From the IMG/VR virus record IMGVR_UViG_3300025645_000047, positions 1-64,000 of that record: a stretch of 64,000 nt of DNA. One strand, given 5' to 3'. The notes beneath the pieces were generated by a model, which saw only the letters and a program-made list of their open reading frames with translations, searched no databases and had not been told where the DNA came from. Each line of letters opens with the position of its first letter. The stretch's first letter is position 1. This DNA comes from a virus. This document shows, one piece after another, positions 36-27,461 of this stretch. The translations under genes and the position numbers were made by a program.

Positions 36-84
36 TTCAGCTATAACACTCATTTCATTTAGGGCCTATTTAAGCGTACATTTA
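36..84 (+). promoter_or_regulatory. Class B bipartite promoter, copy 1 (TTCAGCTATAACA ... TACATTTA)
   Basis: AGCTATAA at 39 and a -7-like box TACATTTA at 77 (offset 38), the same geometry as four other intergenic copies. Confidence 0.65.
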
Positions 85-87
85 TGT

Positions 88-270
88 ATGATCAAGATAG
101 CCACTAAAATATTCTGTACAGCTGTATATCTGCTTGGTGGTACAGTCAGGATTGAGTTGGTTATACTTCCTAGGACACTGGCAATGTTATCTTTCTTTTA
201 TTTTATATACATAGTGTTTCCTTTGATAAAGCTTGGCTATTATTATTTATTTACTTACATTTGGGCATGA
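88..270 (+). CDS. Small hydrophobic hypothetical protein
   Basis: 60 aa, hydrophobic; its stop overlaps the next ATG (ATGA); start lies very close to the -7 box, so it may be leaderless or spurious. Confidence 0.4.
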   Translation: MIKIATKIFCTAVYLLGGTVRIELVILPRTLAMLSFFYFIYIVFPLIKLGYYYLFTYIWA

Positions 271-482
271 ATTGGAAAGATTACTTAACATCTAAAGGCT
301 TCATATACAATGAGAAGAAGGATTCCTGGATCAAGGGTAAAGGGTGGGGTAAGTCTTATTCAGTTTCTATGATAATGAAAGGATTGTTTGAAATAAAGGA
401 TGCTGGAGATGTAGTATTCTCTGATTACGTAAATAGTCTTGAAGAATTTAAGGCATTAATTAAAAAATACATAGATGAGTAA
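267..482 (+). CDS. Hypothetical protein
   Basis: ATG at 267 (MNWKDYL...); tightly packed with neighbours. Confidence 0.7.
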   Translation: MNWKDYLTSKGFIYNEKKDSWIKGKGWGKSYSVSMIMKGLFEIKDAGDVVFSDYVNSLEEFKALIKKYIDE

Positions 483-780
483 ATACGAATTTAACGACTT
501 AATAGATGGATCTATCAGCACAACATCAAACCCAATTCTAACCCAGACCCATAGCTACTTAAATGGTATACAAGTTAATCATACTGGTATCAATAATCAT
601 ACTAGTATCAATACAAATTATTTAATTAGTATTCCGGATGGTGAGATTACATTTGAGGAATTAAATAAAACTATGAATACTTTGTCTAATGCAGTTGTCC
701 ATATGCAAACCAAGATAAAGGATTTAGAAAAAAAGAAAGAATCTGAAAAGATTAATAAAAGAAATATATTTAAAAAATAA
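475..780 (+). CDS. Hypothetical protein with C-terminal coiled coil
   Basis: 101 aa, overlaps the previous gene. Confidence 0.65.
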   Translation: MSKYEFNDLIDGSISTTSNPILTQTHSYLNGIQVNHTGINNHTSINTNYLISIPDGEITFEELNKTMNTLSNAVVHMQTKIKDLEKKKESEKINKRNIFKK

Positions 781-783
781 AAT

Positions 784-1053
784 ATGATATTATTTATAGA
801 AGCAGTAATAGTACTTGGCTTAATTGCATTTCCAATAGTAAAGACTTACTTTAAGGGTGCTGTAGAATGGATGTGGATAAGTGGACTAGTTCTTGGAATT
901 AATGCAGGAGCAGTAATGTTTAGTGCAATGATTGATGATGAAAAAAGGATCTTTAAGATGTATACTTTTCAATTCCACCTTTTTCTAATAACAGTAAGCA
1001 TGGCCTTTTCAATAGAGAAGCCAGATTATGAACTTGAAGAAGAAGAAGAGTAA
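784..1053 (+). CDS. Small membrane protein
   Basis: About three hydrophobic segments and an acidic tail. Confidence 0.7.
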   Translation: MILFIEAVIVLGLIAFPIVKTYFKGAVEWMWISGLVLGINAGAVMFSAMIDDEKRIFKMYTFQFHLFLITVSMAFSIEKPDYELEEEEE

Positions 1054-1256
1054 TGGAGACAGAAGATTACAACTCAAAAGATTACACCTTGTACAACTCA
1101 TTCCTAGAAGCTGCAGCTGACTTTGTAACAGAACAAGACGAAGAGTGGATAGCTAAAGAAGTAGATAAGACTGTAGATTACTTAAAAGCCATGGAGCCTT
1201 CAAAGACTGCAAAAAGAAATCTTCCTTGGAAGACATCAAAAGATGGTGATATCTAA
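1053..1256 (+). CDS. Hypothetical protein
   Basis: TAATG translational coupling to the upstream gene. Confidence 0.7.
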   Translation: METEDYNSKDYTLYNSFLEAAADFVTEQDEEWIAKEVDKTVDYLKAMEPSKTAKRNLPWKTSKDGDI

Positions 1257-1257
1257 A

Positions 1258-1289
1258 TTTGGATTATAGGTAAATAAGATATATCTTTA
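1258..1289 (+). promoter_or_regulatory. Host-type Bacteroidota -33/-7 promoter
   Basis: TTTG at 1258, 20-nt spacer, TATCTTTA at 1282. Confidence 0.6.
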
Positions 1290-1644
1290 CAAAATAGTTA
1301 TTACAGTGTTTTAACTGATATAAAATCTGCAGCTAATCAATCAACACATATTGAAAGGGTACAGATGATCAGGGAGGTTTAAGTAATAATGTTGAATACA
1401 CAGGAAACCTTTTATACTATACGCTTAAGATTGGACTGGATATGGAACAAGTAATTCCTTCTGAAATAACAGATGTTATCAGTCCTTGGCAATTTTACAC
1501 TGTCTTAAGGAAGGTATAAAGAAAACTGTTCCAGAGAACACTAACCCAGTGATTCTCAAGGGATTTGTGTTTTTAATCGTTAATATTAATAAAGTTGTTT
1601 CACAAATATAATGTCTAGAGAATAATACCTCTAGGCATTTTTTT
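1290..1644 (+). ncRNA. Putative structured non-coding RNA of unknown family
   Basis: 447-bp gap with no ORF of 60 aa or more, bounded by a promoter and terminator; nested helices 1411-1417/1514-1520, 1424-1430/1503-1509, 1433-1438/1480-1485, 1343-1348/1566-1571. Confidence 0.55.
1612..1644 (+). terminator. Intrinsic terminator
   Basis: TGTCTAGAG-loop-CTCTAGGCA followed by a T-run. Confidence 0.8.
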
Positions 1645-1654
1645 ATGGAATATA

Positions 1655-1686
1655 TTAGGATTTAGGTTTTTTTTAATATATATTTG
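1655..1686 (+). promoter_or_regulatory. Host-type -33/-7 promoter
   Basis: TTAGGA at 1655 and TATATTTG at 1679 (offset 24). Confidence 0.65.
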
Positions 1687-1703
1687 GAAAAACCTAAAAG
1701 AAA

Positions 1704-2078
1704 ATGAGTACAGAAAAAGAGCCTAAAGAAATTACAGTTGAAGACATTAAACAACAAATGACTGCTGATGACCTGGCAAAAACCTTAAGGCTTGCTCCTT
1801 CTAAAAGAGTAATACTTGGTCTAACAAATGACCACCTAGTAAAACACAACGCACTTATATTCCACAAAGGATCTTCCTTATCATCTGCACAACGCAAAAT
1901 GGTACAGGAGAGAGTTGCCTATGGATTAAACAAAGGAACTATTACTACTGAGCAAGTTGCGGGAGAGATCAATAAACTAAATGCTCTTATTCAAGGAGAA
2001 TTAATAAAAATTACTAAAGATGACAGTATCACTGAGCACTCAGTTTCAGATAAGGAAGAAACTGGAGAAGATTCTTGA
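1704..2078 (+). CDS. Hypothetical protein
   Basis: 124 aa, A-rich start context immediately after a promoter. Confidence 0.8.
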   Translation: MSTEKEPKEITVEDIKQQMTADDLAKTLRLAPSKRVILGLTNDHLVKHNALIFHKGSSLSSAQRKMVQERVAYGLNKGTITTEQVAGEINKLNALIQGELIKITKDDSITEHSVSDKEETGEDS

Positions 2079-2259
2079 TCTTGCAAAAGAAAGAGAAACT
2101 ACCTGCATAACAATAATGACAAACAGAGATTGGCACATAAAAGTGTTTAATTTCTTTTTAAATCATGATAAGATAGGATGGATGAAGATTGGAGGAAACA
2201 CAATCTTTATAATTAAAGAAATGAGAATAGAACTTAAACCAATAGACTTTTATATATGA
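2020..2259 (+). CDS. Hypothetical protein
   Basis: 79 aa, ATGA overlap with the next gene. Confidence 0.6.
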   Translation: MTVSLSTQFQIRKKLEKILDLAKERETTCITIMTNRDWHIKVFNFFLNHDKIGWMKIGGNTIFIIKEMRIELKPIDFYI

Positions 2260-2480
2260 GTAGATTTAGTCAAATAGTAAGTGGATACAAAAACTTAGTT
2301 AAATCTAAGTTAGGGTTGTCCGATGAAAAAGATGAAGAGATCTTTGAAGCAAGAAGAACAATATGCAACGCATGTAAGTTTAAGTCTGCATTAGATAGAT
2401 GTTTAAAGTGTGGATGCCCATTAGGAGCAAAGACAAGAAGTCTTGATAGTGATAATGGTTGTCCAGAAAAACACTGGTAA
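2256..2480 (+). CDS. Small Cys-rich metal-binding protein (DUF6171-like)
   Basis: RxxICxxC...CxxCGCPLxAKTR...CPxxxW pattern. Confidence 0.7.
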   Translation: MSRFSQIVSGYKNLVKSKLGLSDEKDEEIFEARRTICNACKFKSALDRCLKCGCPLGAKTRSLDSDNGCPEKHW

Positions 2481-2481
2481 T

Positions 2482-2646
2482 ATGATATTAACAATAAATC
2501 TACATCCGGAAGTAGTAAAGTTTCTTGAAGAAACAGGAACAGTCTATTTTGACAATACAGGAGAGAAGTCCTATATAGTTAATGGCACTATGTATAAAGA
2601 AACAAATGAAGAAGGATTATACACAACACAATTCATACAAGATTAA
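2482..2646 (+). CDS. Hypothetical protein
   Basis: Likely start at 2482 (MILTINL); TAATG coupling to groEL. Confidence 0.6.
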   Translation: MILTINLHPEVVKFLEETGTVYFDNTGEKSYIVNGTMYKETNEEGLYTTQFIQD

Positions 2647-4220
2647 TGACAGAAATTAAGTTTGACCAGGAAGTAAGAGATGGCATCAAGGCCGGAGTAG
2701 ATGCCTTGGCCAATGCAGTAAAAGTAACCTTGGGCCCAAGAGGACTCAATGTAATTATACAGAGACACAATCAAGATCCTCAAGTTACTAAAGATGGAGT
2801 TACTGTAGCAAAAGAGATTGAGCTAGAAGATCCTATACAAAACATGGGAGCAACTGTAGTTAAGAGAGTGGCAGAGAAATCTAACGATGATGCTGGTGAC
2901 GGAACTACAACAGCTACTGTCTTGGCCCAAGCAATTCTAAGTGAAGGGCTAAAGCTTGTAGCTGCCGGATATAATCCTGTAGAAATTAAAAGAGGAATAG
3001 ATAAAGCTACACAGGTAATAGTAGGTCACCTTAACAGTTCGGCCATACCGGTAACACACGGATCAGACATGATAGAGCACATTGCTACTATCTCTGCAAA
3101 CAATGATCCTGAAATAGGTAAGATTGTTGCAGAGGCATTTAGAAGAGTAGGGTCAGATGGAGCTGTGAGTGTTGAAGAAGGTGCAGGTTTTGAGACTGTA
3201 GTTCACAGAGTAGACGGATTACAATTTGATAGAGGAATGGCCTCATCATTCTTCTCTACTTCTCCTGATAAGGCAGAAGCAACAATGAGGAACCCCTTAA
3301 TACTAGTAGTAGAGGGAAAGGTAACAACCAAAGAACAAATAATGGCGGTACTAGAACCGGTAATAAAACTAGGGAAACCTTTAGTTATAATAGCGGAGGA
3401 CATTGCCGGAGATGCATTGTCAACACTTATACTAAACAAGTTAAAGGGTGGGCATAGTCTTGCAGCAGTAAAGGCACCAGGATTTGGATCATTAAGAACA
3501 GACCTAACTAAAGACATAGCAATCATTGTAGGAGCACAAGTAGTTCCTGCTGATATGGTGGCTGATATAACATCAGAATACATTGAACAACTATTAGGCA
3601 CGGCAACAACAGTTAAGATTGAAGGTATGTCTACTGTGATAATGGGTGGGAAAAGAAGTGAAGAAGAGGTAGCTGATAGGATAAAAGAAATTGAGGCAAA
3701 GATAGCTGACAATAAGATAACTAAATTTGAGGTAGACAAACTACTTGAAAGAAAGGCAAAATTAGGTGGAGGCGTAGCAATTATAGAAGTTGGGGCAAAG
3801 TCTGAGATTGACATGAAAGAAAAGAAGGATAGAGTTGATGATGCAAAGGAAGCAGTAATATCAGCACTTGAAGAAGGAGTTGTGTTAGGCGGAGGATGTG
3901 CACTACTCAACTGCAAAGACTTAGTAGTGAACGTGTTAGAAAATACCGATGAAAAAATAGGGGTGCAACTAATAATGAAAGCTATAGAGGCACCATTCAG
4001 AACAATATGCGATAACGCAGGTGTTAGTTCAGATTTGAAAATAGAAGGGGTAATGTCTAGGCCTACAGGAACCGGATACAATGCAAAAACAGATGAATAT
4101 GTAGAAATGATTGACGCAGGTATACTTGATCCAAAAAAGGTTACAAGAATAGCACTAGAAAGTGCTGCTAGCGTTTCAGGCACATTGCTCACTACAGCAT
4201 GTGCCATAACAATAAAATAA
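2646..4220 (+). CDS. groEL: Phage-encoded chaperonin GroEL (Cpn60)
   Basis: AVKVTLGPRG, TKDGVTVAKEI, GDGTTTATVLAQ, KAPGFG, EKKDRVDDA, GILDPKKV motifs; no C-terminal GGM tail. Confidence 0.97.
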   Translation: MTEIKFDQEVRDGIKAGVDALANAVKVTLGPRGLNVIIQRHNQDPQVTKDGVTVAKEIELEDPIQNMGATVVKRVAEKSNDDAGDGTTTATVLAQAILSEGLKLVAAGYNPVEIKRGIDKATQVIVGHLNSSAIPVTHGSDMIEHIATISANNDPEIGKIVAEAFRRVGSDGAVSVEEGAGFETVVHRVDGLQFDRGMASSFFSTSPDKAEATMRNPLILVVEGKVTTKEQIMAVLEPVIKLGKPLVIIAEDIAGDALSTLILNKLKGGHSLAAVKAPGFGSLRTDLTKDIAIIVGAQVVPADMVADITSEYIEQLLGTATTVKIEGMSTVIMGGKRSEEEVADRIKEIEAKIADNKITKFEVDKLLERKAKLGGGVAIIEVGAKSEIDMKEKKDRVDDAKEAVISALEEGVVLGGGCALLNCKDLVVNVLENTDEKIGVQLIMKAIEAPFRTICDNAGVSSDLKIEGVMSRPTGTGYNAKTDEYVEMIDAGILDPKKVTRIALESAASVSGTLLTTACAITIK

Positions 4221-4221
4221 G

Positions 4222-4566
4222 ATGAAACATGAAGAACTGATTCGAGAAATTGAAAGAAGAGAACAGCAAAATCAAATGGCTCCTTTTCCAATGCATGACA
4301 CGGAAGTAATTAACGATTTAAAAATACTTAATATGATGACAGCAAAAGAAGGATACGAGCAAGAGCCGGTTACCTATTGCAAAACGTGTATGTCTATACA
4401 CATTAAAACTATAGAGTTTGAAGATGGGCCAGGGGGAGAAGAAAGATATGTGGACTATTGCGTTCCTTGTGGAAACACAGATTTAGATAAAGTTTATTTA
4501 GCAGAGTGGGAAGAACTTTATGCTGAGAAGTATGGTGATAAATTTCTAACCAAAAATAATAAGTAA
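4222..4566 (+). CDS. Zinc-ribbon protein
   Basis: EPVTYCKTC...DYCVPCG (two CxxC pairs); resembles a conserved crAss-like gene found near the terminase. Confidence 0.75.
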   Translation: MKHEELIREIERREQQNQMAPFPMHDTEVINDLKILNMMTAKEGYEQEPVTYCKTCMSIHIKTIEFEDGPGGEERYVDYCVPCGNTDLDKVYLAEWEELYAEKYGDKFLTKNNK

Positions 4567-4567
4567 C

Positions 4568-4846
4568 ATGAATATATTTAGTTTTGACGGATGGAAAGAC
4601 AATGCTTTTAAAGCTAAATATATAGACTCTGATCTTAAGGTCCTGGAAATCAAAGCATCTTGGTTTCACAATCAAGTTGAAGAGATGAATAAACAAATGA
4701 CTAAATTAAAATTATTAATAAACACAGTCATAAGTGGATCTAAAGAAAAAAACAAGTATGAGCTATCAGTTAAAATAAATCAGTATGACGGCAGGAAACA
4801 ACATGAACATAAAGAGAATACACACAGACAAGAAATCAATATTTAG
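4568..4846 (+). CDS. Hypothetical protein
   Basis: 92 aa, tightly packed in the operon. Confidence 0.65.
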   Translation: MNIFSFDGWKDNAFKAKYIDSDLKVLEIKASWFHNQVEEMNKQMTKLKLLINTVISGSKEKNKYELSVKINQYDGRKQHEHKENTHRQEINI

Positions 4847-5171
4847 ATATTGGTTGGCTCTTCTCAAGCCTTATCATAAATTAAGGCAAAAAGAAATAGA
4901 CGCATTAGGGCTGTTGTTATATTATCGATATGAATTGACTAGAGAGATAAAGGATATAGACATGGTTGACATGATTCTATTCTCCACCCAAACTAGAACA
5001 AAAATAAGAGAAGATCTTGGAGGAATGGGTCAAAAGGTTTTTAATAACCTACTTACTTCCTTGAGAAAGAAGAGTGTCATAACAAAAGATAATAAAATAA
5101 ATCCAGTATTAATTCCTAAAATGTCTGAAAATGGATTTAAGTTAATATTTGATTTTGAAGTAAAAAAATGA
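4803..5171 (+). CDS. Putative winged-helix DNA-binding protein
   Basis: Basic; LFSTQTRTKIREDLGGMGQKVFNNLLTSLRKKSVI resembles an HTH plus wing; probable start at 4803. Confidence 0.55.
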   Translation: MNIKRIHTDKKSIFRYWLALLKPYHKLRQKEIDALGLLLYYRYELTREIKDIDMVDMILFSTQTRTKIREDLGGMGQKVFNNLLTSLRKKSVITKDNKINPVLIPKMSENGFKLIFDFEVKK

Positions 5172-5488
5172 AACCAAAGAAAAAAACTTATGCAGATCAA
5201 CTACATAGATCAAATATAGTTGATGGAGAAAAAACTAAAGAGCTAGCAAAGAAATATGACATGGATCTTGGCTTAATGAAAAAGCTCCTGGCTGCACCTT
5301 ATGAGTTTATTCAGAAAAAAACAAGGGAACTTGATTTTAAAGATGGGTTGACTAAAGAAGAATTTGATAAAATAAAAAAAGACTTTAACATTCCTGCATT
5401 AGGAAAAGTTTTTGCATCAAATTACTTGTATAACGAAATACAGAAAAAAAAGAATAAAACTAAAACAATAAGAGATGATAACAGATAA
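5168..5488 (+). CDS. HU/IHF-like DNA-binding protein
   Basis: KELAKKY...FNIPALGKVF pattern resembles the HU/IHF fold. Confidence 0.5.
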   Translation: MKPKKKTYADQLHRSNIVDGEKTKELAKKYDMDLGLMKKLLAAPYEFIQKKTRELDFKDGLTKEEFDKIKKDFNIPALGKVFASNYLYNEIQKKKNKTKTIRDDNR

Positions 5489-5579
5489 AGATTATACCAG
5501 GATAGGTATCGTAGTATTTAAAGTAGCTATTGTAGCATTTGCAATAGGAGTATTAATAGGGTATTTAATTTTTAATTAA
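5475..5579 (+). CDS. 34-aa single-pass membrane peptide (not in ORF track)
   Basis: MITDKDYTRIGIVVFKVAIVAFAIGVLIGYLIFN fills the gap in the operon. Confidence 0.6.
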   Translation: MITDKDYTRIGIVVFKVAIVAFAIGVLIGYLIFN

Positions 5580-5586
5580 TATTAAA

Positions 5587-5754
5587 ATGGAAGAAGCTAA
5601 ATTATTTGTAACAACAGAAGATCTTTTAAATAAAACTTTAAAATATCTTGGAACAAAGCCGTACATTGAAGTCGCTGGATTAATAAAAGGACTTATGGCC
5701 GCAGCACCTTACAAAACAAAAATAGAAGAAAATAATGGAGAAGCAGAATCTTAA
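5587..5754 (+). CDS. 55-aa hypothetical protein (not in ORF track)
   Basis: MEEAKLFVTTEDLLNKTLKYLGTKPYIEVAGLIKGLMAA...; good A-rich start context. Confidence 0.7.
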   Translation: MEEAKLFVTTEDLLNKTLKYLGTKPYIEVAGLIKGLMAAAPYKTKIEENNGEAES

Positions 5755-6337
5755 AAGAGGTCAGGCCTCCAAGGACGTAGAAAGGCTCAAGGGAGAGGAA
5801 GCCAGAGACCTTGGAGTTGCAGACTTCTTCAATACTAGAGATAGATCTAGAAGAGGATCAGGAGGACTTGTTGAGGATACAACTAAAGTTCTTAATGATG
5901 AGGTGACAGTAAAGGAAAGGTTATACGAGGACTCTCACAATGTAAGTGCAATCCCAGCGTATGTAAATCCAATGTTTGCAGGAATCTTTCTAACAGCAAA
6001 AAGAAATAAGATAACAGAGAATGGAATATATCTTCCAACTGCATCGTATGGAAAAGGAACTGATACAGATATGGATGTAGACTTTTCTGAAAAACAATTT
6101 GTATTAGCTGTAGGGCCACACACTCAACAAGTATGTGTTGGTATGGAAGTTGTTTTAAATATGGACAACTTTAAAAAAAGACTTGAGAGTAACATGGCTC
6201 AAAAGCTAAGTAAAGAATTTGAATACATATTGCCTATAGAGGTAATTGAAGGTACAGAATACCTGTACGTAAGCGAAAGAGATATAAAGTATATCTCAAA
6301 TACTAATGGAATATTAAAAATAAAAGACAATGTTTAA
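5735..6337 (+). CDS. GroES-like co-chaperonin with N-terminal extension
   Basis: NPMFAGIFL...ITENGIYLP...VLAVGP..QVCVGMEVVL...EYLYVSERDI parallels the GroES pattern PLxDRV..TxGGIxLP..VxAVGPG..VKVGDxV..EYLIxxExDI. Confidence 0.75.
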   Translation: MEKQNLKRGQASKDVERLKGEEARDLGVADFFNTRDRSRRGSGGLVEDTTKVLNDEVTVKERLYEDSHNVSAIPAYVNPMFAGIFLTAKRNKITENGIYLPTASYGKGTDTDMDVDFSEKQFVLAVGPHTQQVCVGMEVVLNMDNFKKRLESNMAQKLSKEFEYILPIEVIEGTEYLYVSERDIKYISNTNGILKIKDNV

Positions 6338-6551
6338 AGACAAAAAAAAGAAAACAAAAGAGGTTAAATCAGCAAAAGCTGTAGTACAAACTAAAGCTTA
6401 TAGTGAGCAAATTCACGATATGTTGGTAGAAGCAGAATTAATGCTTGACAAAGCACCAAAAACTCTTGAAATTCGTGGAGCATCAAAGAAACTTAACATT
6501 GCAATTGCTAGTCTTGCACAGGCAGGTAAGTTTGCAGAAGTTAAAGAATAA
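6330..6551 (+). CDS. Hypothetical basic protein
   Basis: 73 aa, overlaps the upstream stop. Confidence 0.7.
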   Translation: MFKDKKKKTKEVKSAKAVVQTKAYSEQIHDMLVEAELMLDKAPKTLEIRGASKKLNIAIASLAQAGKFAEVKE

Positions 6552-6576
6552 CTGAATTGTCACACACTTATTAGGA

Positions 6577-6607
6577 TAGCTCTACTTGACAGTAGGGCTA
6601 TTTTTTT
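6577..6607 (+). terminator. Intrinsic terminator overlapping the next promoter
   Basis: TAGCTCTACT-TGAC-AGTAGGGCTA followed by T7; CTTGAC (6585) lies 24 nt before TATATTGC (6609). Confidence 0.75.
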
Positions 6608-6622
6608 GTATATTGCAATACT

Positions 6623-7177
6623 ATGAATATATTTGAGATTGAAAACAACGTAGTAACATTCAGCCCACAAGCATTAATGATAGCACCATTTAGGGCTTTA
6701 TGGGATGCTGATGATTCTAAAGATAAGATACAAGCTACATCAGAATTGTCTTATGTTTATTACATGGCAGATGAGAGAAGTGATTTTATGCACATACTTG
6801 ATAATGACGAAAGAGCAGAAGAAATTATAAGAATACTAGATCCGCCTAAAGGTTTAGACAGGACAAGAAAAGATTTAATCCGTGCTATAGGATATTACAC
6901 AAAAGCATCAGAAACTACAAGTACTAAGTTGCTCCAAAGCACTAGGTTAGTTATTCAAAAGATATCTGAGTTTCTTGATAATGTTAATATGGATGAAAGG
7001 GACGAAAGAACTAAAAAGCCAATCCATGACATTGGAAAAATAACAGGAGCAGTAGAAAAGATACCTAAACTCATTAAGGCAATGAATGAGATTGAGAAAG
7101 AAGTAATAAAAGAAAAAATGCTTAAGGCTCAATCTGGAAACAGAGTTAGCTCTGTGTTTGATGATGATGGAATATGA
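6623..7177 (+). CDS. Conserved crAss-like gene upstream of TerL (possible small terminase subunit)
   Basis: Synteny and ATGA coupling to TerL; helical; ELSYVYYMADERS motif. Confidence 0.6.
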   Translation: MNIFEIENNVVTFSPQALMIAPFRALWDADDSKDKIQATSELSYVYYMADERSDFMHILDNDERAEEIIRILDPPKGLDRTRKDLIRAIGYYTKASETTSTKLLQSTRLVIQKISEFLDNVNMDERDERTKKPIHDIGKITGAVEKIPKLIKAMNEIEKEVIKEKMLKAQSGNRVSSVFDDDGI

Positions 7178-9534
7178 GAAAATTTAATAGTATTCAAACA
7201 GAGCTTACTGATGATCTTCTTCTTTCTATGCCAAGAGAAGAAAGGCAAGACTTGCTTGATAGTATAGACTCTATAATGTTTATACAGAATCTTACCTCTC
7301 CAAAAAGAAACAAAGTAAAAGATCTTATTAGATGGGACAATCCTTTGCTTCCAGAATCAAGTGAAGATCCTGATATGGATTTAAGATTACCAGATCCAAA
7401 TGGTAGAATAGCTGTTAACTTAACAGATCCGCATATACTGGAAGACATGGACTATTTTAGACCAAGTGCTCTTTACTTTGAAAAGCATGGGTGTTACACT
7501 AAGTTGTTTCCAAACAAAAATACCAATTCACTTTATTATAAATTCTGGCAAGAAGAAGCAAGAAGATGCAGAGAAGGATTTATAAGAGAATCTGATGGAG
7601 AATGGATACCCGGTAACTATTACTTTCAATTAAACTTTGCACCACTGCTTAGAGCAGAAATTATAAAAGGAACTAAACAGGCTGACAGGCTTGAAGGCTT
7701 TGCTTACGTGTATGATGCAGATTACTGGTTCTTTCACTATTGTGAACAAGCAAGAGCACAAGGTAAGCATGGTGCCAACTTAAAACGAAGGGGTTGTGGT
7801 TATTCAGTAAAAGCATCTAACATGTTGGCCAAGAACTTTATACTTGGAGACACAGATAAAGCTAGAAAGAAAGTAAAATCATTTGCTATTGCTAATGAGA
7901 AAGAATACCTAATCAAGGATGGTATCTTAAATAAATTTGTTAACGTAATTGACTGGAATGCAACGCATACGCCATGGCCGAGAGTTAGAAGTTTAAAAGA
8001 TTCTTTAAATGATATGCACTGGAGGATGGGTCGTAAAGATAACATCCGTGGTACAGAGATTGGAGTGTTAAACGAAGTGATGGGTGTTACCTTAAAGAAT
8101 GATCCACAGAAAGCAAGGGGAAAAAGGGGTGCACTAGTACTTTGGGAGGAAGCAGGTAAATTCTCTGACTTCCTTACAGCTTGGAAGATTGCACAACCAT
8201 CTGTTGAAGAATCTGGATATGCATTTGGATTTATGATGGCCGGTGGTACAGGTGGTGTTGAAGGTGGAGCATTTGAAGGATTAGAAGAAATATTTTATAA
8301 CTCAGATGGTTATAACATTATGTCAATGCCTAATGTGTTTGACAAGAATACAAATGGTAAAGGTAAGTGTGCATTTTTCTTTGGTACGTATCTTAACTTT
8401 CGTGGAAAAATGGACAAGAATGGTAACAGTGATGTTATTGGTGCCATGATTGAAATCAATAAGAATAGATCTAAGGTAAAGTATGGGTCATCTGACTTAA
8501 ACACAATTGTACAGACTAAAGCAGAGGAGCCTATTACTCCACAAGAAGCAATCATGCGTACTCAAGGTTCGGCTTTTCCTGTAGCAGATCTAAGAGATTA
8601 CTTAGAAGACATAATGCCAAACATGGAAAGATTCTGTGATTCTCACTGGATAGGAAGCTTGTCTTATGATGAAGAAGGGTTTACTAAGTGGGTAAACAGC
8701 ACTGATCAGAATCCTATTAGAGAGTTTCCATTTAAAGTAAAAGGAAACACTAGTGCTGATGGAGCTATTGAGATATTTGAAATGCCTAACAAAGATAGAG
8801 ACGGTAATGTGTTTCAAAATAGATACATTGGCGGAATAGATCCAATTGATAATGATTACACAATTGGTGGGTCATTAGCGTCTATACTTATATTTGATTT
8901 ATGGACAGACAAGATTGTTGCGGAATATACTGGTCGTCCAAGATTGGCAGATGAGTTTTATGAAACATGCTTAAGACTAACTTCATTTTATAACGCACAA
9001 TCAAATTACGAGAATAACCTGAAAGGATTGTTTTCTTACTTCTCCAATCGTAATGCTTTGTATCTGCTTGCAGATAGTCCAGAGATTTTGCGTGACATGG
9101 ACATTGTAAAGAGTGCTCTCTTTGGCAATAGGGCAAAAGGTACTAGAACAACCAAAGAAGTAATTAAGCTCGGTAAAACGCTTCAGAGACAATGGCAACT
9201 TGCTCCGTATGAAGAAGAAAGATATGATGAAGAAACTGGAGAGTCTAGTAACTTTACAATTCCTAATCTAAGAAGGATTAGAAGCATTGGATATATAAAA
9301 GAGTGCATTGCATGGAATCCAGATATAAACACGGATAGGGTATCTGCAATGGACATGGTTATGATATTAAGAGAAGATAGGGCAAAGATGACAGATGCTT
9401 TTGAAGATCAAACTGAAGTAGACTCAAATACTTATTTTCATGACGATCCTTTTCTTGATGAAAACTGGAAAAATGCAGTTACCAAAATGTCCACAGGCTC
9501 AGGCCCCAACAAGAGCTTCATTAATGGGTTTTAG
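7174..9534 (+). CDS. terL: Terminase large subunit (crAss-like)
   Basis: Walker A-like LKRRGCGYS, Walker B LVLWEEAG, motif III GGTGG, nuclease YIGGIDP and DRVSA. Confidence 0.93.
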   Translation: MRKFNSIQTELTDDLLLSMPREERQDLLDSIDSIMFIQNLTSPKRNKVKDLIRWDNPLLPESSEDPDMDLRLPDPNGRIAVNLTDPHILEDMDYFRPSALYFEKHGCYTKLFPNKNTNSLYYKFWQEEARRCREGFIRESDGEWIPGNYYFQLNFAPLLRAEIIKGTKQADRLEGFAYVYDADYWFFHYCEQARAQGKHGANLKRRGCGYSVKASNMLAKNFILGDTDKARKKVKSFAIANEKEYLIKDGILNKFVNVIDWNATHTPWPRVRSLKDSLNDMHWRMGRKDNIRGTEIGVLNEVMGVTLKNDPQKARGKRGALVLWEEAGKFSDFLTAWKIAQPSVEESGYAFGFMMAGGTGGVEGGAFEGLEEIFYNSDGYNIMSMPNVFDKNTNGKGKCAFFFGTYLNFRGKMDKNGNSDVIGAMIEINKNRSKVKYGSSDLNTIVQTKAEEPITPQEAIMRTQGSAFPVADLRDYLEDIMPNMERFCDSHWIGSLSYDEEGFTKWVNSTDQNPIREFPFKVKGNTSADGAIEIFEMPNKDRDGNVFQNRYIGGIDPIDNDYTIGGSLASILIFDLWTDKIVAEYTGRPRLADEFYETCLRLTSFYNAQSNYENNLKGLFSYFSNRNALYLLADSPEILRDMDIVKSALFGNRAKGTRTTKEVIKLGKTLQRQWQLAPYEEERYDEETGESSNFTIPNLRRIRSIGYIKECIAWNPDINTDRVSAMDMVMILREDRAKMTDAFEDQTEVDSNTYFHDDPFLDENWKNAVTKMSTGSGPNKSFINGF

Positions 9535-9578
9535 CTATAATATTAAAACAAATAAAGGAAGAATATTGATTAAATTTA
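9530..9578 (+). promoter_or_regulatory. Class B bipartite promoter, copy 2 (portal)
   Basis: AGCTATAA at 9533 overlapping the TerL stop; TAAATTTA at 9571 (offset 38). Confidence 0.7.
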
Positions 9579-9594
9579 CAGAATATATTTAGAT

Positions 9595-11991: not shown

Positions 11992-11997
11992 AACAAG

Positions 11998-13176
11998 ATG
12001 GCAATAAAGTTAACACAAAACCAATTCTATGGAGATGAACTTGAGAAACCAATTTCATCAATTCCGGGTACTTTATTTATTGCAACAGACACTAATAAAA
12101 TGTTTCTTTACAATGATCTAGGAGTTCCTGTGTTGGTTACTTCTCAAGGAGATTTTGGAGTTCCTTATACTGGAGCTGTACAAGATCTAGACATGGGAGT
12201 TAATGGAGTTATAGCTCAAAGTCTTCAAGTATCTGGTGGTGCAGGAGGAGAAGGCTCACTAACTTGGAATGCAACAGAAGCTACAATGGATCTACAGAGT
12301 GGTGGAGTTACTTATCAGTTAGGACAAGAAATTGCACCATTGGTAAGAAACACTACAGGTAATACAATAGCAAATGGAACGCCTGTTAGGTTTGCAGGAA
12401 CAAATGGTAATTCAGGAAGAATATTAGTTGCACCTGCAATAGCAGATGGAACAATCCCTTCCTCTTACATCTTAGGAGTATCTACGGAAGAGATACTTAA
12501 CGGAGCAGATGGACACGTAACTTGGTTTGGAAAAGTTAGAGGAATACCCACTAATGGTTCAAATTATGGACAGACTTGGATTAATGGAGATTTAATTTAT
12601 GTAAGTGAAGTAACAGCAGGATTTTTAACAAACGTAAAGCCAGAAGCACCAAACGCACAAATATTTATTGGGGTTGTTGTTAATGCTAGTCCATCTAATG
12701 GAACTTTGTTTGTGAGACCATCTTGGAGAGGACTACTTATAGATTTAGAAGATGTTAATGGTCCTGCAACAACTACAGGTCAAATTCCAGTATGGAATGA
12801 CACTCTTAAAGTATTTCAATTTTCAGAAAATATTCTTAAGTACAGTAAATTAGGAACTACAGGCACGCCATTTTTATTAGAGGCTACTCCAAGTGGAACA
12901 TCATCTTACTCAGATTCTAATGGTGTAGTATATCTTAATTGGGTAGGAGCTTCAGGACAATACGACCTTACGCTTCCATCTGCAGCAATAGAACCTTATA
13001 GAGTAATAAGATTTATTAACGATGGGACTATAGGGGCTAACGACAAAGTAAATTTAGTTGCTCCTGGTGCTGAAACAATTGATGGACAACCTGGGTACAT
13101 ATTAAATAAACCTTATGGTGGAGTTCAAGCTTGGTCAGATGGAACCAATTGGATTATAATGCAAGCAAAGGGATAA
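11998..13176 (+). CDS. Fibre/decoration protein with TQNQF N-terminal module
   Basis: Gly-rich beta modules; C-terminal TLPSA...IDG...SDGTNWII tip-like domain. Confidence 0.65.
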   Translation: MAIKLTQNQFYGDELEKPISSIPGTLFIATDTNKMFLYNDLGVPVLVTSQGDFGVPYTGAVQDLDMGVNGVIAQSLQVSGGAGGEGSLTWNATEATMDLQSGGVTYQLGQEIAPLVRNTTGNTIANGTPVRFAGTNGNSGRILVAPAIADGTIPSSYILGVSTEEILNGADGHVTWFGKVRGIPTNGSNYGQTWINGDLIYVSEVTAGFLTNVKPEAPNAQIFIGVVVNASPSNGTLFVRPSWRGLLIDLEDVNGPATTTGQIPVWNDTLKVFQFSENILKYSKLGTTGTPFLLEATPSGTSSYSDSNGVVYLNWVGASGQYDLTLPSAAIEPYRVIRFINDGTIGANDKVNLVAPGAETIDGQPGYILNKPYGGVQAWSDGTNWIIMQAKG

Positions 13177-14076: not shown

Positions 14077-14129
14077 TTGTACTTAACTATATATATATAT
14101 TATTAATTAATTAACAACAAGAAACAATT

Positions 14130-15842: not shown

Positions 15843-15861
15843 TAGTAACTAGTAAACAACA

Positions 15862-15935: not shown

Positions 15936-15956
15936 AGTATATTTAAAAAAAAATAA

Positions 15957-17753: not shown

Positions 17754-17764
17754 ACAAAAAAACA

Positions 17765-19636: not shown

Positions 19637-19643
19637 TACATAC

Positions 19644-19692
19644 TTTAGCTATAATATAGAAGTTCCCTTTTTGAAAAAAAAGGGTATTTTTG
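19644..19692 (+). promoter_or_regulatory. Class B bipartite promoter, copy 3
   Basis: AGCTATAA at 19647, TATTTTTG at 19685 (offset 38); the spacer holds a CCCTTTTT/AAAAAGGG hairpin. Confidence 0.72.
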
Positions 19693-19711
19693 TTTATACG
19701 ACAATTTCACA

Positions 19712-20452
19712 ATGGGCCTAATAACACTAGACATATCAGCTAAACTTAATCAGCGACCAAACTCTTCTGGGTGGGTATCTATTAATATAGACAATGGGGC
19801 TATACATACATTCACTCTTGCAAATTTTACTACAGAAACAAATCCTGCGTACGGTGACCCTGAAGGAGATCCATTAGAATCAATAAATATTCTTAGCCTA
19901 CCTTCACAAGGAGTTTTAAAACTTTCTGCAGTTGCAGTAACTGTGCCTCAGATAGTAACGTCAGCAGAATTAGTAGCTGGTGATTTAACCTATGAGTCAG
20001 ATGTTTTAGATACTGATGGATACACTGACAGTTATATGTACTTTGTAGTTTCTGATACTGGATCTAGTTTGTTTACACTTAAGTCAAACCCTGTTTCACT
20101 TAGAGTAGCAACATCTATAAACCTTGCACCAAATCAAGTTGGAAATACAGAAATAACAATTCCTCATGGATCAACAACAGTTATAACTACAGCAATGCTT
20201 ACTACGGGGTTAAACCCACCATACGAGGATCCAGAAGGAGATGCAGCGTCTATGTTATTAATTGAGAGTTTGCCTATATACGGTGTTCTTCTTCTTAATG
20301 GTATTAGAGTTTATGTTGATCAAGAGATATCATTTACTGATATAACTTCAGGATTATTTACTTATGTAAATAGCAACTTAGAAGAAAAAGGAATAAAAGA
20401 AGAATTTAATTTTAAAATCTCTGACGCTGGTTCAGGGGAATACAGAGGATAA
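19712..20452 (+). CDS. Tandem cadherin/Ig-like repeat protein
   Basis: Two repeats of FT...P.Y.DPEGD....I.SLP..G.L...F.VSD.GS; paralog of 34706..35446. Confidence 0.7.
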   Translation: MGLITLDISAKLNQRPNSSGWVSINIDNGAIHTFTLANFTTETNPAYGDPEGDPLESINILSLPSQGVLKLSAVAVTVPQIVTSAELVAGDLTYESDVLDTDGYTDSYMYFVVSDTGSSLFTLKSNPVSLRVATSINLAPNQVGNTEITIPHGSTTVITTAMLTTGLNPPYEDPEGDAASMLLIESLPIYGVLLLNGIRVYVDQEISFTDITSGLFTYVNSNLEEKGIKEEFNFKISDAGSGEYRG

Positions 20453-21761: not shown

Positions 21762-21781
21762 TAATAAATAAATAATAAAAA

Positions 21782-24121: not shown

Positions 24122-24124
24122 TAT

Positions 24125-25150
24125 ATGGCCATACAGAAAATCTTAACAGACTTGGAAGTTTCAGGTGCCGTGACAATTGACTCAGATACAGATACAATCT
24201 TGAAGCTGAACTCAACAGACAACGGTGCACTCTATGTAAATTACGCTAGAAGTGACGACAGGCATGCCTATGTTGGATTTGGTGGGGCTAGTGATAACTT
24301 TACTATAATGAGTGAAGAGGTTGGCGGTCAGTTAATACTAGGAACTGCGGCAACTACAAGAATGACTATTGATGAGACTGGAAATGTAGGTGTAGGTACA
24401 GATCCTCAATCTAAATTTCACGTCAGATCTTCAAGTTCAGGAGCTTCAACTCATGCAGGAACTTTAATTGTAGAGGCAGGTTCAGCTCCTTCTATACAGA
24501 TTCTTTCAGCAAATACACAAACACAAAGTATTAAGTTTGGAGATGCCGAAGATGGAGATGTGGGAAGAATTACATATAGTCATGCTACTAATGAAATGAC
24601 ACTAGTTACTGCAGCAGCAACTAGAATGACTATTGATAGTGTTGGCCATGTAGGTATAAATGAAACAAATCCTTCTGAAGAATTACACGTAACAGGTAGA
24701 GCTATAATAACTGATAGGTTAGGAATTGGTGGAGACTTTGTTCCACAAAAAGCTCTTCACTTAAAAAATGCTGCTCCTATATTTAGGATGGAAGATACTG
24801 ATACAGCAAGTTATGCTGAGTTTGTAAAAACTTCAAGTAGATTTACAATTAGATTAGATCCAACTGATACAGAGACAGCAAGCGAGATAACACTTGAATT
24901 AGATGGAACTGAAAGGTTTGTGGTAAAACCTGATGGTGTAGGAGTAGGAGTGACAAATCCAAAATCAGCACTAGATGTTAATGGAGGAGTTAAAGTAGCT
25001 AATGACCCGGCTACTACTGCTTTAGATACAAAAGTAGGAACTATAAGATATAGAGTTCTTAATAGCATTTCGTATATGGAAATGTGTATGCAAACAGATG
25101 GAAGTACGTATGAGTGGGTTATCATTGTTAAAAATGATTGGACTTTATAA
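24125..25150 (+). CDS. Tail fibre protein
   Basis: RMTID..GNVGVG.P / HVGINETNP / GVGVTNP..ALDV.G repeats typical of Bacteroidota and phage fibre shafts. Confidence 0.75.
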   Translation: MAIQKILTDLEVSGAVTIDSDTDTILKLNSTDNGALYVNYARSDDRHAYVGFGGASDNFTIMSEEVGGQLILGTAATTRMTIDETGNVGVGTDPQSKFHVRSSSSGASTHAGTLIVEAGSAPSIQILSANTQTQSIKFGDAEDGDVGRITYSHATNEMTLVTAAATRMTIDSVGHVGINETNPSEELHVTGRAIITDRLGIGGDFVPQKALHLKNAAPIFRMEDTDTASYAEFVKTSSRFTIRLDPTDTETASEITLELDGTERFVVKPDGVGVGVTNPKSALDVNGGVKVANDPATTALDTKVGTIRYRVLNSISYMEMCMQTDGSTYEWVIIVKNDWTL

Positions 25151-25159
25151 AATAAAGCT

Positions 25160-25672
25160 ATGGGAGCAAAAATATTTAATGCAGATAAATTTATTGTAGA
25201 TGGAGGAACATCTGGTCAGTTTTTAAAAGCTGATGGATCAACACAAGCAATAACACCATTAACTACTGCGGAAGAAATACAAGACATAGTTGGTGCTATG
25301 GTTAATGGAAATGTAGAAACTAACATCTCTGTAACATACAGTGATGGAGATGGTAAGTTAAATTTTGTAGGTAATCCTACAGATACATTTTTAGAAGCTG
25401 TTGGGACACCAGTTGCAAAACAATTGGGAATTTGGAGTACTGCAGGTACATTAGAAGGAGACTCAGATCTTACATATAATTCAACAACAACAACACTTAC
25501 TGTATCAGGAGAAATATCAACTTCACAATATAACTTAACAGCAATGCAAATAGTTCCTCTTGCTAGAAATGCAACAGGAGTTTTAGGGGAGATAAGAATA
25601 AATGCAACAGGTATATATGTATGCAGTGCTACAAATTCCTGGAGCAAAGTAACCTTGGCAACTTCTTGGTAG
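25160..25672 (+). CDS. Short fibre protein
   Basis: EEIQDIVGAMV..N.ET.ISVTY.D motif; C-terminal GEIR....IYVC.ATNSW. Confidence 0.7.
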   Translation: MGAKIFNADKFIVDGGTSGQFLKADGSTQAITPLTTAEEIQDIVGAMVNGNVETNISVTYSDGDGKLNFVGNPTDTFLEAVGTPVAKQLGIWSTAGTLEGDSDLTYNSTTTTLTVSGEISTSQYNLTAMQIVPLARNATGVLGEIRINATGIYVCSATNSWSKVTLATSW

Positions 25673-25698
25673 TTTTTTCCTACTTTTCCAAAATCTAT

Positions 25699-25747
25699 TT
25701 TAGCTATAATAAATAAATAAAAACTAATCCATTCTTACATATATTTG
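25699..25747 (+). promoter_or_regulatory. Class B bipartite promoter, copy 4 (lysis cassette)
   Basis: AGCTATAA at 25702, TATATTTG at 25740 (offset 38). Confidence 0.75.
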
Positions 25748-25770
25748 TATAGACGTACACACTTAATATC

Positions 25771-26286
25771 ATGAAATCAACAATGCTTTTTTTTAAAGAA
25801 ATGACAGTAGGCAAAAGTCTTCTGCTGTCTTTGAGTCCCGTCCTAATAATGATATTAAGCATGAAAACAATTTTATTCGCATTATTTATAATTATAATAA
25901 TTGACCTTTTAACTGGAATAAGAAAATCACATTATACAGAAGGTGTTTTATTTCAACCATTTAAAAAAGAATTCTGGAAAGTAATAAAGTCAAAAGAACT
26001 TCGCAGGACTTGGACTAAAGCAGTTGAATATATAACAGGAATTATAGCTTTCACAATCTTAGATACAATGGTTCTAGGAAGCTCTAGTATACAGATGCTA
26101 GGAAATGATTACTCAATAGCAGAACTAGCAGTAACAGTTGCCTGCTTAGTTGAAGTGTACAGCATTTATGAAAACATGGAAGCTGTTAGTGGAAACAATT
26201 TATTTAAAAAGATTCTTGGATTCTTACCAAGAGCATTTAAGTCTGCATTCGCACCTAGGAGAAGAAGGGGACAAGATGAAAAATAG
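25771..26286 (+). CDS. Holin (phage holin 4-like)
   Basis: TM segments; IIDLLTGIRKS, S..LRRT..K..EY, EVYSIYEN motifs; basic C-terminus. Confidence 0.8.
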   Translation: MKSTMLFFKEMTVGKSLLLSLSPVLIMILSMKTILFALFIIIIIDLLTGIRKSHYTEGVLFQPFKKEFWKVIKSKELRRTWTKAVEYITGIIAFTILDTMVLGSSSIQMLGNDYSIAELAVTVACLVEVYSIYENMEAVSGNNLFKKILGFLPRAFKSAFAPRRRRGQDEK

Positions 26287-26710
26287 ACTAGAAATATCAA
26301 GATTCTCAGAAGATGAGTTTCAAACATTAGCTAAGTTCTTTGTGCTTGACGATTGTGAACTAGAAGTGCTTGAAGGATACATACTAGAGCTACCAGATAA
26401 AGACAATAAGACTAGCATATCAAGAATTCCACAAGGATCTTATACTTGTGTAAAAAGAAATTCCCCAAAGTATGGTGATCACTTTCACGTATTAGACGTT
26501 GAAGAAAGAAGCTACATACTTATACATCACGGAAATTATAACACTGATACAAGAGGATGTCTACTTCCAGGAAAAGATCTTATAGATATAAATGGAGATG
26601 GATTAAAAGACGTTACAAGTAGTAAAAAAACTATGGCAAAGCTTAATGAATTATTGCCAGATGAATTTGAACTATGTATCATAAATGAATTTAAAGATGA
26701 GTCAAAATAA
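26276..26710 (+). CDS. DUF5675-like (L,D-transpeptidase-fold) putative endolysin
   Basis: ILELP....SRIPQGSY...SPKYG...RSYILIHHGNYNTDTRGCLLPG; probable ATG at 26276. Confidence 0.8.
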   Translation: MKNRLEISRFSEDEFQTLAKFFVLDDCELEVLEGYILELPDKDNKTSISRIPQGSYTCVKRNSPKYGDHFHVLDVEERSYILIHHGNYNTDTRGCLLPGKDLIDINGDGLKDVTSSKKTMAKLNELLPDEFELCIINEFKDESK

Positions 26711-27194
26711 TGATAACCCAAAGTTAAAAAAAAATGGAGGCTCTGGCACTAATGTAGGTAATGCACTTAGATTCCTTGTTAAGCAAGGTAAAGAAGTAGC
26801 TCCTGAACTATTAGATCTTGCTGGAAGTCTTACGGGTATTAAACAATTAAACTCATTAGGAACGGCCATAAGAGGTGACAAGAGCCTTAGTGAACCAGAC
26901 AAAAGTATTCTTCTTCAAGAAATGGAGAATGATATGATTGAGATGGTTGAGGTTACCAAGCGTTTACAGATAGATAGTGAGCACGCTATTACTAGAATGA
27001 TTAGACCTGTAAGCTATGCAGCTATGTTTGTTTTATTTATGTCTGTAGTATTACTAGATGGTAACTTAGGAGCTTTTACAATAGATAAAGCATACGTACC
27101 TGTGATACAATCCTTATTTGGAACTATGACTATATTTTATTTTGGCTCAAGAGGTATTGAAAAAGTAATGAAGACTCTTAAGAAATCAGAATGA
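26697..27194 (+). CDS. Second holin-like membrane protein
   Basis: ITRMIRP followed by two TM helices, then FYFGSRGIEK; resembles GTA/3TM holin-like proteins. Confidence 0.65.
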   Translation: MSQNNDNPKLKKNGGSGTNVGNALRFLVKQGKEVAPELLDLAGSLTGIKQLNSLGTAIRGDKSLSEPDKSILLQEMENDMIEMVEVTKRLQIDSEHAITRMIRPVSYAAMFVLFMSVVLLDGNLGAFTIDKAYVPVIQSLFGTMTIFYFGSRGIEKVMKTLKKSE

Positions 27195-27400
27195 GTAGGT
27201 TAGAAACCTTTCTTAAAGACAATATAATATTTGTTGTCACTTTTGTTTTTTCTTGTGGAATAATGTATTCTGAAATTCAAAGCTTAAGAACTGTAGAAGA
27301 TAGATTAGGCAAAAAAATTAAAGTAATATCACAAATGTCTGGTCAAATAAATGAATTAGAAAATAGAATAATTGTTTTAGAGACTACCAAGTGTAATTAG
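27191..27400 (+). CDS. Membrane-anchored coiled-coil protein (spanin-like or lysis accessory)
   Basis: N-terminal TM, coiled coil, terminal Cys. Confidence 0.5.
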   Translation: MSRLETFLKDNIIFVVTFVFSCGIMYSEIQSLRTVEDRLGKKIKVISQMSGQINELENRIIVLETTKCN

Positions 27401-27412
27401 CTTATTAAATAT

Positions 27413-27461
27413 TTTAGCTATAACATATAATAGCGTTGACTTACATTATGTTATACTTTTG
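27413..27461 (+). promoter_or_regulatory. Class B bipartite promoter, copy 5 (scaffold/MCP)
   Basis: AGCTATAA at 27416, TACTTTTG at 27454 (offset 38). Confidence 0.75.

Follow-up and report, generated by a model that had tools for sequence, protein, structure and literature searches.

The first 64 kb of a 90,570-bp virus record in IMG/VR (IMGVR_UViG_3300025645_000047), hereafter the window, carry five copies of a bipartite element, in which a box, AGCTATAA, is followed at a fixed distance by TAnnTTT(G/A). The source is an uncultured, aquatic crAss-like phage. To judge from their sequence and its conservation, the five sites are a real, conserved cis-regulatory class. They are probably promoters of the host primary sigma factor (sigma-A) that lack the usual -33 element and depend on a phage factor bound to the upstream box, at about -54 to -41. 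From this arrangement we infer promoter activity, transcription starts, the existence and identity of an activator, and the timing of expression.

According to the mechanism that we propose, host RNA polymerase with its primary sigma factor would read all five sites, with TAnnTTT(G/A) as the -7 element. An asymmetric, phage-specific box, TTT(T/C)AGCTATAA(Y)A, would replace the -33 TTG; it lies on one helix face, its distance to the -7 box being 38 (rarely 39) nt. The box would be bound by a sequence-specific DNA-binding protein of the phage, itself produced earlier from promoters without the box. By contact with the polymerase, at sigma region 4 or at the alpha C-terminal domain, this protein would switch on together the genes for virion and lysis and those of the first block. 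The elements are located as follows, the offset being the distance from the start of the box to the start of TAnnTTT.

35..48, + strand: upstream box of promoter 1, TTTCAGCTATAACA, preceding the first small-gene block; its orthologue in the relative G004 stands behind the same poly-A run, at offset 39
77..84, + strand: -7 box of promoter 1, TACATTTA; the ATG at 88 falls on the predicted start (about 88-89)
9529..9542, + strand: upstream box of promoter 2 (portal), TTTTAGCTATAATA, overlapping the end (stop codon TAG) of the large terminase gene, 7174-9534
9571..9578, + strand: -7 box of promoter 2, TAAATTTA; predicted start about 9583, ATG at 9595
19643..19656, + strand: upstream box of promoter 3, CTTTAGCTATAATA; orthologues in G004, L126/L032, L132/L095 and L133
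19685..19692, + strand: -7 box of promoter 3, TATTTTTG; predicted start about 19697, ATG at 19712
25698..25711, + strand: upstream box of promoter 4 (lysis cassette), TTTTAGCTATAATA; 14 of 19 relatives keep it, with an offset of 38 or 39
25740..25747, + strand: -7 box of promoter 4, TATATTTG; predicted start about 25752, ATG of a holin-family gene at 25771
27412..27425, + strand: upstream box of promoter 5 (g092 homologue and major capsid protein), TTTTAGCTATAACA; present in 19 of 19 relatives
27454..27461, + strand: -7 box of promoter 5, TACTTTTG; predicted start about 27466, ATG at 27491

The word AGCTATAA occurs 12 times on the two strands (5.4 expected): at the five sites, in three other copies on the + strand and in four on the - strand. 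The gapped pattern AGCTATAA-N30-TAnnTTT has exactly five matches, starting at 39, 9533, 19647, 25702 and 27416, all of them on the + (coding) strand; 0.03 were expected, and none of 100 shuffled sequences reached five. Over the full 90,570-bp record there are five forward and no reverse matches, and the backward-read control gave 0 and 0. An earlier first-pass annotation of this DNA, which had claimed a five-copy motif with an invariant 38-nt spacing, unrelated spacers and no TTG at -33, is borne out on all three points: the five 28-nt spacers are mutually unrelated (mean pairwise identity 0.32, compared with 0.31 from composition), and TTG is absent from the region 21-25 nt upstream of the TA at all five sites. 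Across the five sites the box extends to (T/C)TT(T/C)AGCTATAA(T/C)A and is longer than first described. A search of both strands with the query TTAGCTATAA, allowing up to two mismatches, yielded no degenerate extra copies at offset 38. An exact copy at 51610 (- strand, inside a gene, with TAnnTTT at 36) and a two-mismatch copy at 28784 (inside the capsid gene, offset 39) were judged to be due to chance.

The -7 boxes, which start at 77, 9571, 19685, 25740 and 27454, read TACATTTA, TAAATTTA, TATTTTTG, TATATTTG and TACTTTTG, with the form TAnnTTTG at three sites and TAnnTTTA at two. TAnnTTTG had been identified as the sigma-A -7 element of the Bacteroidota, and this agrees with the geometry given in a study of F. 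psychrophilum, in which the TAnnTTTG box of sigma-A is at -12 to -5 (PMC9723704). When the same geometry is applied here, the core box would reach from about -50 to -43, or in its extended form from about -54 to -41, and start sites are predicted near 88/89, 9583, 19697, 25752 and 27466. The predicted 5' leaders (-1, 12, 15, 19 and 25 nt, in the order of the sites) are within the range that the same source reports for Flavobacterium, with a median of 24 nt and 5.5% of mRNAs leaderless (PMC9723704). The -7 box and the short predicted leaders match those of canonical Bacteroidota and Flavobacterium sigma-A promoters. The canonical promoter, however, has a TTG at -33, some 19-21 nt ahead of the -7 box, whereas the box class is without it and has an additional box at about -54 to -41.

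The ATG of the first gene lies only 11 nt after the TA of its -7 box, a distance identical in G004, and the mRNA of this first gene of the + arm is predicted to be leaderless or nearly so. The record itself begins about 40 nt ahead of the first box, with a long poly-A run (A16-T-A6; window 1-38), and the contig of the relative G004 likewise starts at a long poly-A run about 40 nt ahead of its first box. The poly-A start of both records represents either an assembly break at a homopolymer or a genuine genome end.

Each site sits between the end of one gene and the start of the next block, at a distance of -1 to 30 nt from the preceding gene and of 11 to 37 nt from the following ATG. The downstream blocks are those named in the first-pass annotation (small genes, portal, fibre block, lysis, and scaffold and major capsid protein). 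Site 39 precedes the small-gene block that begins at 88 and corresponds to the middle genes of phage phi14:2. Site 9533 precedes the portal gene (9595-11991), and site 19647 a block of virion-protein and tail-fibre genes from 19712. Site 25702 lies before a holin-family gene (25771-26286; Pfam score 31.6 bits, cut-off 22.2), in a lysis block that also includes DUF5675 and a second holin-like gene. Site 27416 is followed by a homologue of g092 (27491-28630) and then by the major capsid protein gene (28656-30155). Downstream of the last of these sites we also noted the sequence GGAGAA (27467-27472), a few bases past the predicted start and about 20 nt before the g092-like ATG, which is kept in 19 of 19 relatives and also in the complete relative G001. 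Such a conserved GGAGAA is unexpected in a phylum reputed not to use Shine-Dalgarno sequences.

The phage is recognised as crAss-like by its major capsid protein (Pfam Crass_capsid, 521 bits), a Cpn60 chaperonin, tail ring proteins 1 and 2, its portal protein, and a gene order that is colinear with the phi14:2 right arm. The + strand carries every gene from 88 to 68340, and the - strand the replication arm (68442-89592). Megablast of positions 1-12000 against phage records gave no match. The nearest named phages by portal protein are only about 42% identical, a value that also holds for the comparison with phi14:2 g093 (42%).

The conservation of the element was analysed in relatives picked by protein similarity and not by motif. 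The portal set comprised 62 loci (66-100% amino acid identity), 57 of which had upstream DNA, 45 of them distinct; five loci (L137, L177, L179, L180 and L183), whose match began at the locus edge with no DNA upstream, were omitted. Box and spacing were found in 43 of the 45 distinct upstream regions, with AGCTATAA at offset 38 in 34 cases, AGCCATAA at 38 in eight and AGCAATAA at 39 in one. The strict rule excludes the other two regions, one of which (L136) still has the box, followed by TAAATAT at 38. The -7 boxes of these 43 orthologues end in TTTA (28), TTTG (9) or TTCG (6). All 19 g092-like loci (63-100% identity) carry (C/T)TTTAGCTATAA(T/C)A with TAnnTTTG at offset 38, their spacers varying between subgroups, and in 14 of the 19 the lysis-block site is present 1.0-2.2 kb upstream, at offset 38 or 39. 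The retention of motif and spacing in relatives had been chosen in advance as one of the points on which the claim could fail, and the counts at the portal, g092-like and lysis sites uphold it.

Among more complete relatives, a 31.6-kb contig (G004) has four of the five sites, including the first, at offset 39, and a complete 97-kb genome (G001; 66% portal identity) has three orthologous sites: AGCCATAA before the portal gene at 38, AGCCATAA before the lysis block at 39 and AGCAATAA before the g092-like gene at 39. In the lysis-block promoter of the latter genome (reverse complement of 91856-91935) the -7 box lies inside an inverted repeat, GGTGGTG...CACCACC. Five more partial relatives add eight matches, confined to a single strand in each record, with none in the control. 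For sites 39 and 19647 the supporting orthologues are few (G004, L126, L132 and L133), because the corresponding protein searches found no relatives of 475-780 and a single one, an identical contig, of 19712-20452.

Taken together, the loci examined contain 236 distinct segments with AGCNATAA, of which 71 have TAnnTT(T/C) at offset 38 and nine at offset 39; any other offset from 10 to 73 occurs in 0-7 segments. The flanks of the box, which were not conditioned on, show TTT at -3 to -1 in about 0.8 of the sites, T at +8 in 0.72 and A at +9 in 0.83. Orthologous spacers are 0.47-0.65 identical, compared with 0.79-0.97 for the box region (the box core being conditioned on). Within the core, position 4 is variable (T, C or A), and the G and C of the box are invariant. 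One element of the first-pass annotation, a palindromic core TAGCTA, has to be abandoned: the clade with 66% portal identity has AGCCATAA or AGCAATAA. Since the palindrome is not kept and core position 4 varies, recognition of the box looks asymmetric.

The -33 element is lacking in the class at large: TTG occupies this position in only three of 80 distinct sites across the relatives. Promoters of canonical structure, without the box, are present elsewhere in the same genome:

35868..35898, + strand: canonical promoter TTGAC-N20-TATATTTG, without box, before 35903, in front of the operon that holds an IHF-like gene (IHF, integration host factor)
43013..43043, + strand: canonical promoter TTGAC-N20-TATATTTG, without box, before 43048

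A further box-less sequence, TTGACAG-N-TATATTGC, precedes 6623. Because such canonical promoters occur beside the five sites, the genome evidently has two promoter classes, one with the box and without the -33 element, the other canonical and without the box. At some of its promoters, the clade to which the window belongs seems to have given up the -33 contact in favour of an upstream box.

These data also bear on another interpretation, in which the box would be the operator of a repressor or timing factor that keeps -7-only promoters off early in infection and would not recruit polymerase at all. A conserved box at a fixed distance looks the same in either case, and the accessible text of the F. 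psychrophilum study suggests that in this phylum the -7 box alone may suffice for initiation (PMC9723704). We consider an operator unlikely, since the -33 TTG is missing precisely in the box class (3/80) and box-less promoters of the same genome have it. Moreover, a site centred at about -47 is clear of both the -7 box and the start, which makes steric repression less natural, and strict helical phasing at 38/39 is more typical of protein-protein contact.

Sequences of the phage were found in RNA data in the form of assembled contigs, which do not show 5' ends, in which the ranking of genes by depth is unreliable and whose gaps in coverage carry no weight. Parts of the region 25000-31000 are contained in 17 RNA runs, six of which contain at least half of the sampled words. 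In all four metatranscriptome runs the mean contig depth rises several-fold across 27416 (from 10.8 to 102 in X1, from about 2 to 30.6 in X2, from about 2-5 to 38.7 in X3, and from about 3 to 10.6 and 31.7 in X4). This rise is a weak hint of a strong scaffold/capsid promoter, and of RNA as opposed to DNA in the libraries. Contigs start at 9606, 19716 (X2 and X4), 25787 and 27480, i.e. 14-35 nt past the predicted starts.

RNA contigs over the gene 14130-15842 have 2-4 times the depth of their neighbours in 4/4 runs, with contig starts at 14035-14211. The 53-nt gap before this gene (14077-14129) is devoid of the box and of a canonical -33/-7 pair, and a promoter of another type may lie ahead of the gene. 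A stretch free of open reading frames (1258-1700) is flanked by TAAATTTG (about 1258) and TATATTTG (about 1683-1690), neither of which is accompanied by the box or a -33 TTG.

The spacer of promoter 3 has a structure of its own:

19664..19684, + strand: terminator-like hairpin CCCTTTTT-GA-AAAAAAGGG inside the promoter 3 spacer, its T-run being the -7 box

The spacer folds with -14.2 kcal/mol (z -4.0). Orthologues retain the hairpin with different stem letters (CCCTTTTT/AAAAAGGG, GCCTTTTTT/AAAAAAGGT, GCCTTTTT/AAAAAGGC and ATAGC/GCTAT). Such an arrangement is compatible with an upstream operon that ends at the hairpin and with transcription that begins anew just past the T-run. RNA structure was considered as a reason for the fixed spacing and rejected, as the other four spacers are unfolded (0 to -3.1 kcal/mol, z -0.9 to 1.1).

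The hairpin is of importance for the role of the box itself, which might be a -10-like core element (TATAAT/TATAAC) for a modified or alternative polymerase of the T4-late type, with TAnnTTT as a tandem promoter or leader element. Indeed, AGCTATAAT includes TATAAT at three of the five sites, and one RNA contig begins at 19657, right past the box. A conserved terminator placed directly after the box at 19647 and in its orthologues would, however, stop any transcript initiated there, which argues against a core promoter. Besides this, the T at +8 is found in only 0.72 of the sites, the region from -30 to -5 upstream of the box is unconserved, a fixed 38 nt to a leader element has no obvious reason when four of five spacers are without RNA structure, and late transcription of phi14:2 is reported, in the available text of the preprint, to be rifampicin-sensitive host transcription (bioRxiv 10.1101/2020.03.07.982082). 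We therefore regard such a core element as very improbable.

If the box is an accessory site, it could in principle be read directly by the host, either as an UP-like element for the alpha C-terminal domain or as a borrowed host-regulator site. UP elements and class I/II activator sites do lie at about -54 to -41, and the search of 40 small phage proteins with Pfam and PHROGs (see below) found no phage factor. The position of the box thus fits an UP element, an A/T-rich tract at -40 to -60 of which host promoters make general use, but its invariant G and C are not those of such a tract. Among the genome-contig matches listed, the exact pattern is scattered over many unrelated AT-rich taxa. One Flavobacteriaceae-type family, represented by 401 genomes of about 3 Mb each, yielded 446 matches (about 1.1 per genome), with no enrichment of the bipartite pattern (0-7 matches per genome, 0-5 in the backward-read control, for which per-genome ranges and not totals were compared); the phage, for comparison, has five matches in 90 kb on one strand. 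It appears, then, that the bipartite element is not a general host one, with the proviso that the control family may not be that of the host. The box moreover differs by clade (AGCTATAA here, AGCCATAA/AGCAATAA in relatives and another sequence in phi14:2), which is a better fit for a co-evolving phage factor. Direct reading by the host thus seems improbable; a phage-specific factor is favoured because there is no excess in host genomes and the box changes between phage clades.

Four proteins are candidates for this factor. The small-gene block upstream of the terminase gene matches a block of the IAS virus and PhiCrAssBcn4, in which genes are annotated as "putative transcription factor", "VpsT-like putative transcriptional regulator" and "protein HU".

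4222..4566, + strand: candidate factor of 114 amino acids with CxxC-N24-CxxC (zinc-ribbon); IAS virus 'putative transcription factor', BLASTP 40% identity, E 7e-15
4785..5171, + strand: candidate factor of 128 amino acids, predicted winged-helix; IAS virus VpsT-like protein, BLASTP E 1.5e-26; phi14:2 g098, E 5e-21
5168..5488, + strand: candidate factor of 106 amino acids; IAS virus 'protein HU', BLASTP 33% identity, E 9e-10
37591..38169, + strand: candidate factor; phi14:2 g073 'IHF subunit', BLASTP 41% identity, E 6e-41

All four are conserved in G001, or in G001 and G003-G005. The family of 4785-5171 comprises 592 clusters (50% identity) at E <= 0.001 and includes phi14:2 g098 and IAS virus gp091. 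Its AlphaFold2 (AF2) model has a pLDDT (predicted local distance difference test) of 93.9, and VIA-align returned Z 5.8-7.2 for many winged-helix chains, all tied, below 8 and with no family singled out; among them are the LexA N-terminal domain, plasmid initiators, Crp/Fnr helix-turn-helix (HTH) domains and the T4 MotA N-terminal domain. Foldseek gave nothing at E <= 0.001 for this protein (best E 2.2). No Pfam model covers it, and at most four of 112 family members weakly match any single HTH Pfam family; leads from the Atlas include Sigma70_r4_2 in 18% of one cluster (score 0.90). The IHF-like candidate 37591-38169 has no sequence match in the PDB and a weak AF2 model (pLDDT 61), for which the top Foldseek rows are IHF/HU at E >= 0.08; its gene lies behind a canonical promoter. 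More generally, the candidate genes sit behind box-less promoters, which would allow their synthesis before the box class fires.

Several observations weigh against activator-dependent promoters. The absence of a -33 element alone is no proof that an activator is needed, the -7 box being dominant in this phylum, and two of the five -7 boxes end in A and not in G. Pfam and PHROGs searches of the 40 small proteins gave no transcription-factor domain above cut-off, the nearest match below it being Bac_DnaA_C (31.2 bits against 31.5; G000 69541-70101, - strand); a protein that would bind the box is represented by candidates, none of them linked to it. The starts downstream of the -7 boxes are predicted, and contigs cannot place 5' ends. 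One X3 contig (9460-9992) bridges the portal site, and contigs of X2 and X3 start at 27328 and 27397, 19-88 nt upstream of the 27416 box, which means that read-through transcription, or DNA in the library, exists. The "late" timing is deduced by analogy from the gene classes of phi14:2, and the 401 control genomes possibly belong to the wrong family for the phage host.

The switch to virion genes in crAss-like phages has been approached by a single set of experiments, which, in the accessible text, show host polymerase on middle and late genes and a sigma-70-like motif (10.1101/2020.03.07.982082). A conserved -33-less class with a phage-specific box would provide a testable handle on the late switch, consisting of a DNA element, a spacing and four candidate proteins. 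Operon annotation in aquatic Crassvirales that are uncultured also benefits from it, and, should the factor be found, promoter and factor could serve as a compact orthogonal pair for Flavobacteriia.

The closest system studied is that of phi14:2, in which host polymerase transcribes the middle and late genes, with sensitivity to rifampicin; the available text of the preprint describes middle promoters with -35-like and -10-like blocks, transcribed in vitro by the E. coli sigma-70 holoenzyme, and reports promoters upstream of the g092 and g093 homologues (bioRxiv 10.1101/2020.03.07.982082). We read the phi14:2 motif from the sequence upstream of the genes named there and not from the published logo. 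In phi14:2 and its relatives, as probably here, host-polymerase promoters of the TAnnTTTG type precede the homologues of g092, g093 (portal) and the small-gene block. The phi14:2 promoters P070, P075, P108 and P110, in contrast, have a TTG of the -33/-35 kind some 20 nt ahead of the -7 box, and this TTG the box class is without. Thus, the five sites share with the phi14:2 type the -10/-7-like block and the location upstream of homologous genes, but not the -35-like TTG block. It is the canonical promoters of the window that resemble those of phi14:2 g070, g075, g108 and g110. The portal promoters of the IAS virus and PhiCrAssBcn4 are canonical as well, with TTG 20 nt before TAACTTTG or TACTTTTG.

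In phi14:2 (L007) the sequence TAAACGCTATTAAAA occurs only twice in the genome, upstream of g093 (portal) and of g092 (89257-89243 and 86800-86786, - strand), with GCTAT exactly 68 nt before TATATTTG in both copies; both promoters additionally carry a -33 TTG. The accessible text of the preprint does not mention this box (bioRxiv 10.1101/2020.03.07.982082). Its presence suggests that an upstream box on head-gene promoters may be wider than the present clade, with another sequence and distance. A more general scheme is conceivable, although we hold it to be rather doubtful, in which the late switch of Crassvirales would operate through clade-specific pairs of a small DNA-binding protein and a fixed-phase upstream box before a host -7 element. 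Here 4785-5171 would be a MotA-like adaptor at -47, a surrogate for the missing contact between sigma region 4 and -33, and the phi14:2 box at -80 would be a variant.

The first-pass annotation knew of no such description for crAss-like phages, and our literature searches, which covered material other than the logos and promoter lists of the preprint, likewise found no upstream-box, -33-less class described for crAss-like or Flavobacterium phages. The word "promoter" is absent from a 2023 review of the Crassvirales, according to which their transcription programme is broadly N4-like (PMC10136315). The crAss001 paper covers host promoters only. Phage N4 uses a virion polymerase for early genes and host polymerase for late genes, as the phage of the window would; its single-stranded DNA-binding protein, however, is not known to require a specific DNA site for activation, whereas the conserved box of the window implies sequence-specific control.

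Activator-dependent late promoters are well known in P2/186/P4 (Ogr, B and Delta) and in Mu (C and Mor). The five sites are like them in the weak or absent -35 element, in the upstream box at a fixed phase and distance, and in the virion operons that would be switched together. In P2/186/P4 and Mu, however, whose hosts are Proteobacteria, the box is a dyad to which dimers or zinc-finger proteins bind, whereas the box described here is asymmetric, belongs to a different sigma-A grammar and has candidate activators only. At the middle promoters of T4, in the course of sigma appropriation by MotA/AsiA, an asymmetric phage box of 8-9 bp replaces the -35 contact, as would be the case here. The MotA box is centred at about -30, compared with about -47 in the window, and the match of 4785-5171 to the MotA N-terminal domain (PDB 6k4y and 1bja; Z 6.5-6.8) is tied with many winged-helix proteins and not specific. 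Undescribed for the crAss-like group in the literature that we found, the activator-dependent design is classical for phages, and the form that it would take here is that of an asymmetric box at -47 replacing the -33 contact.

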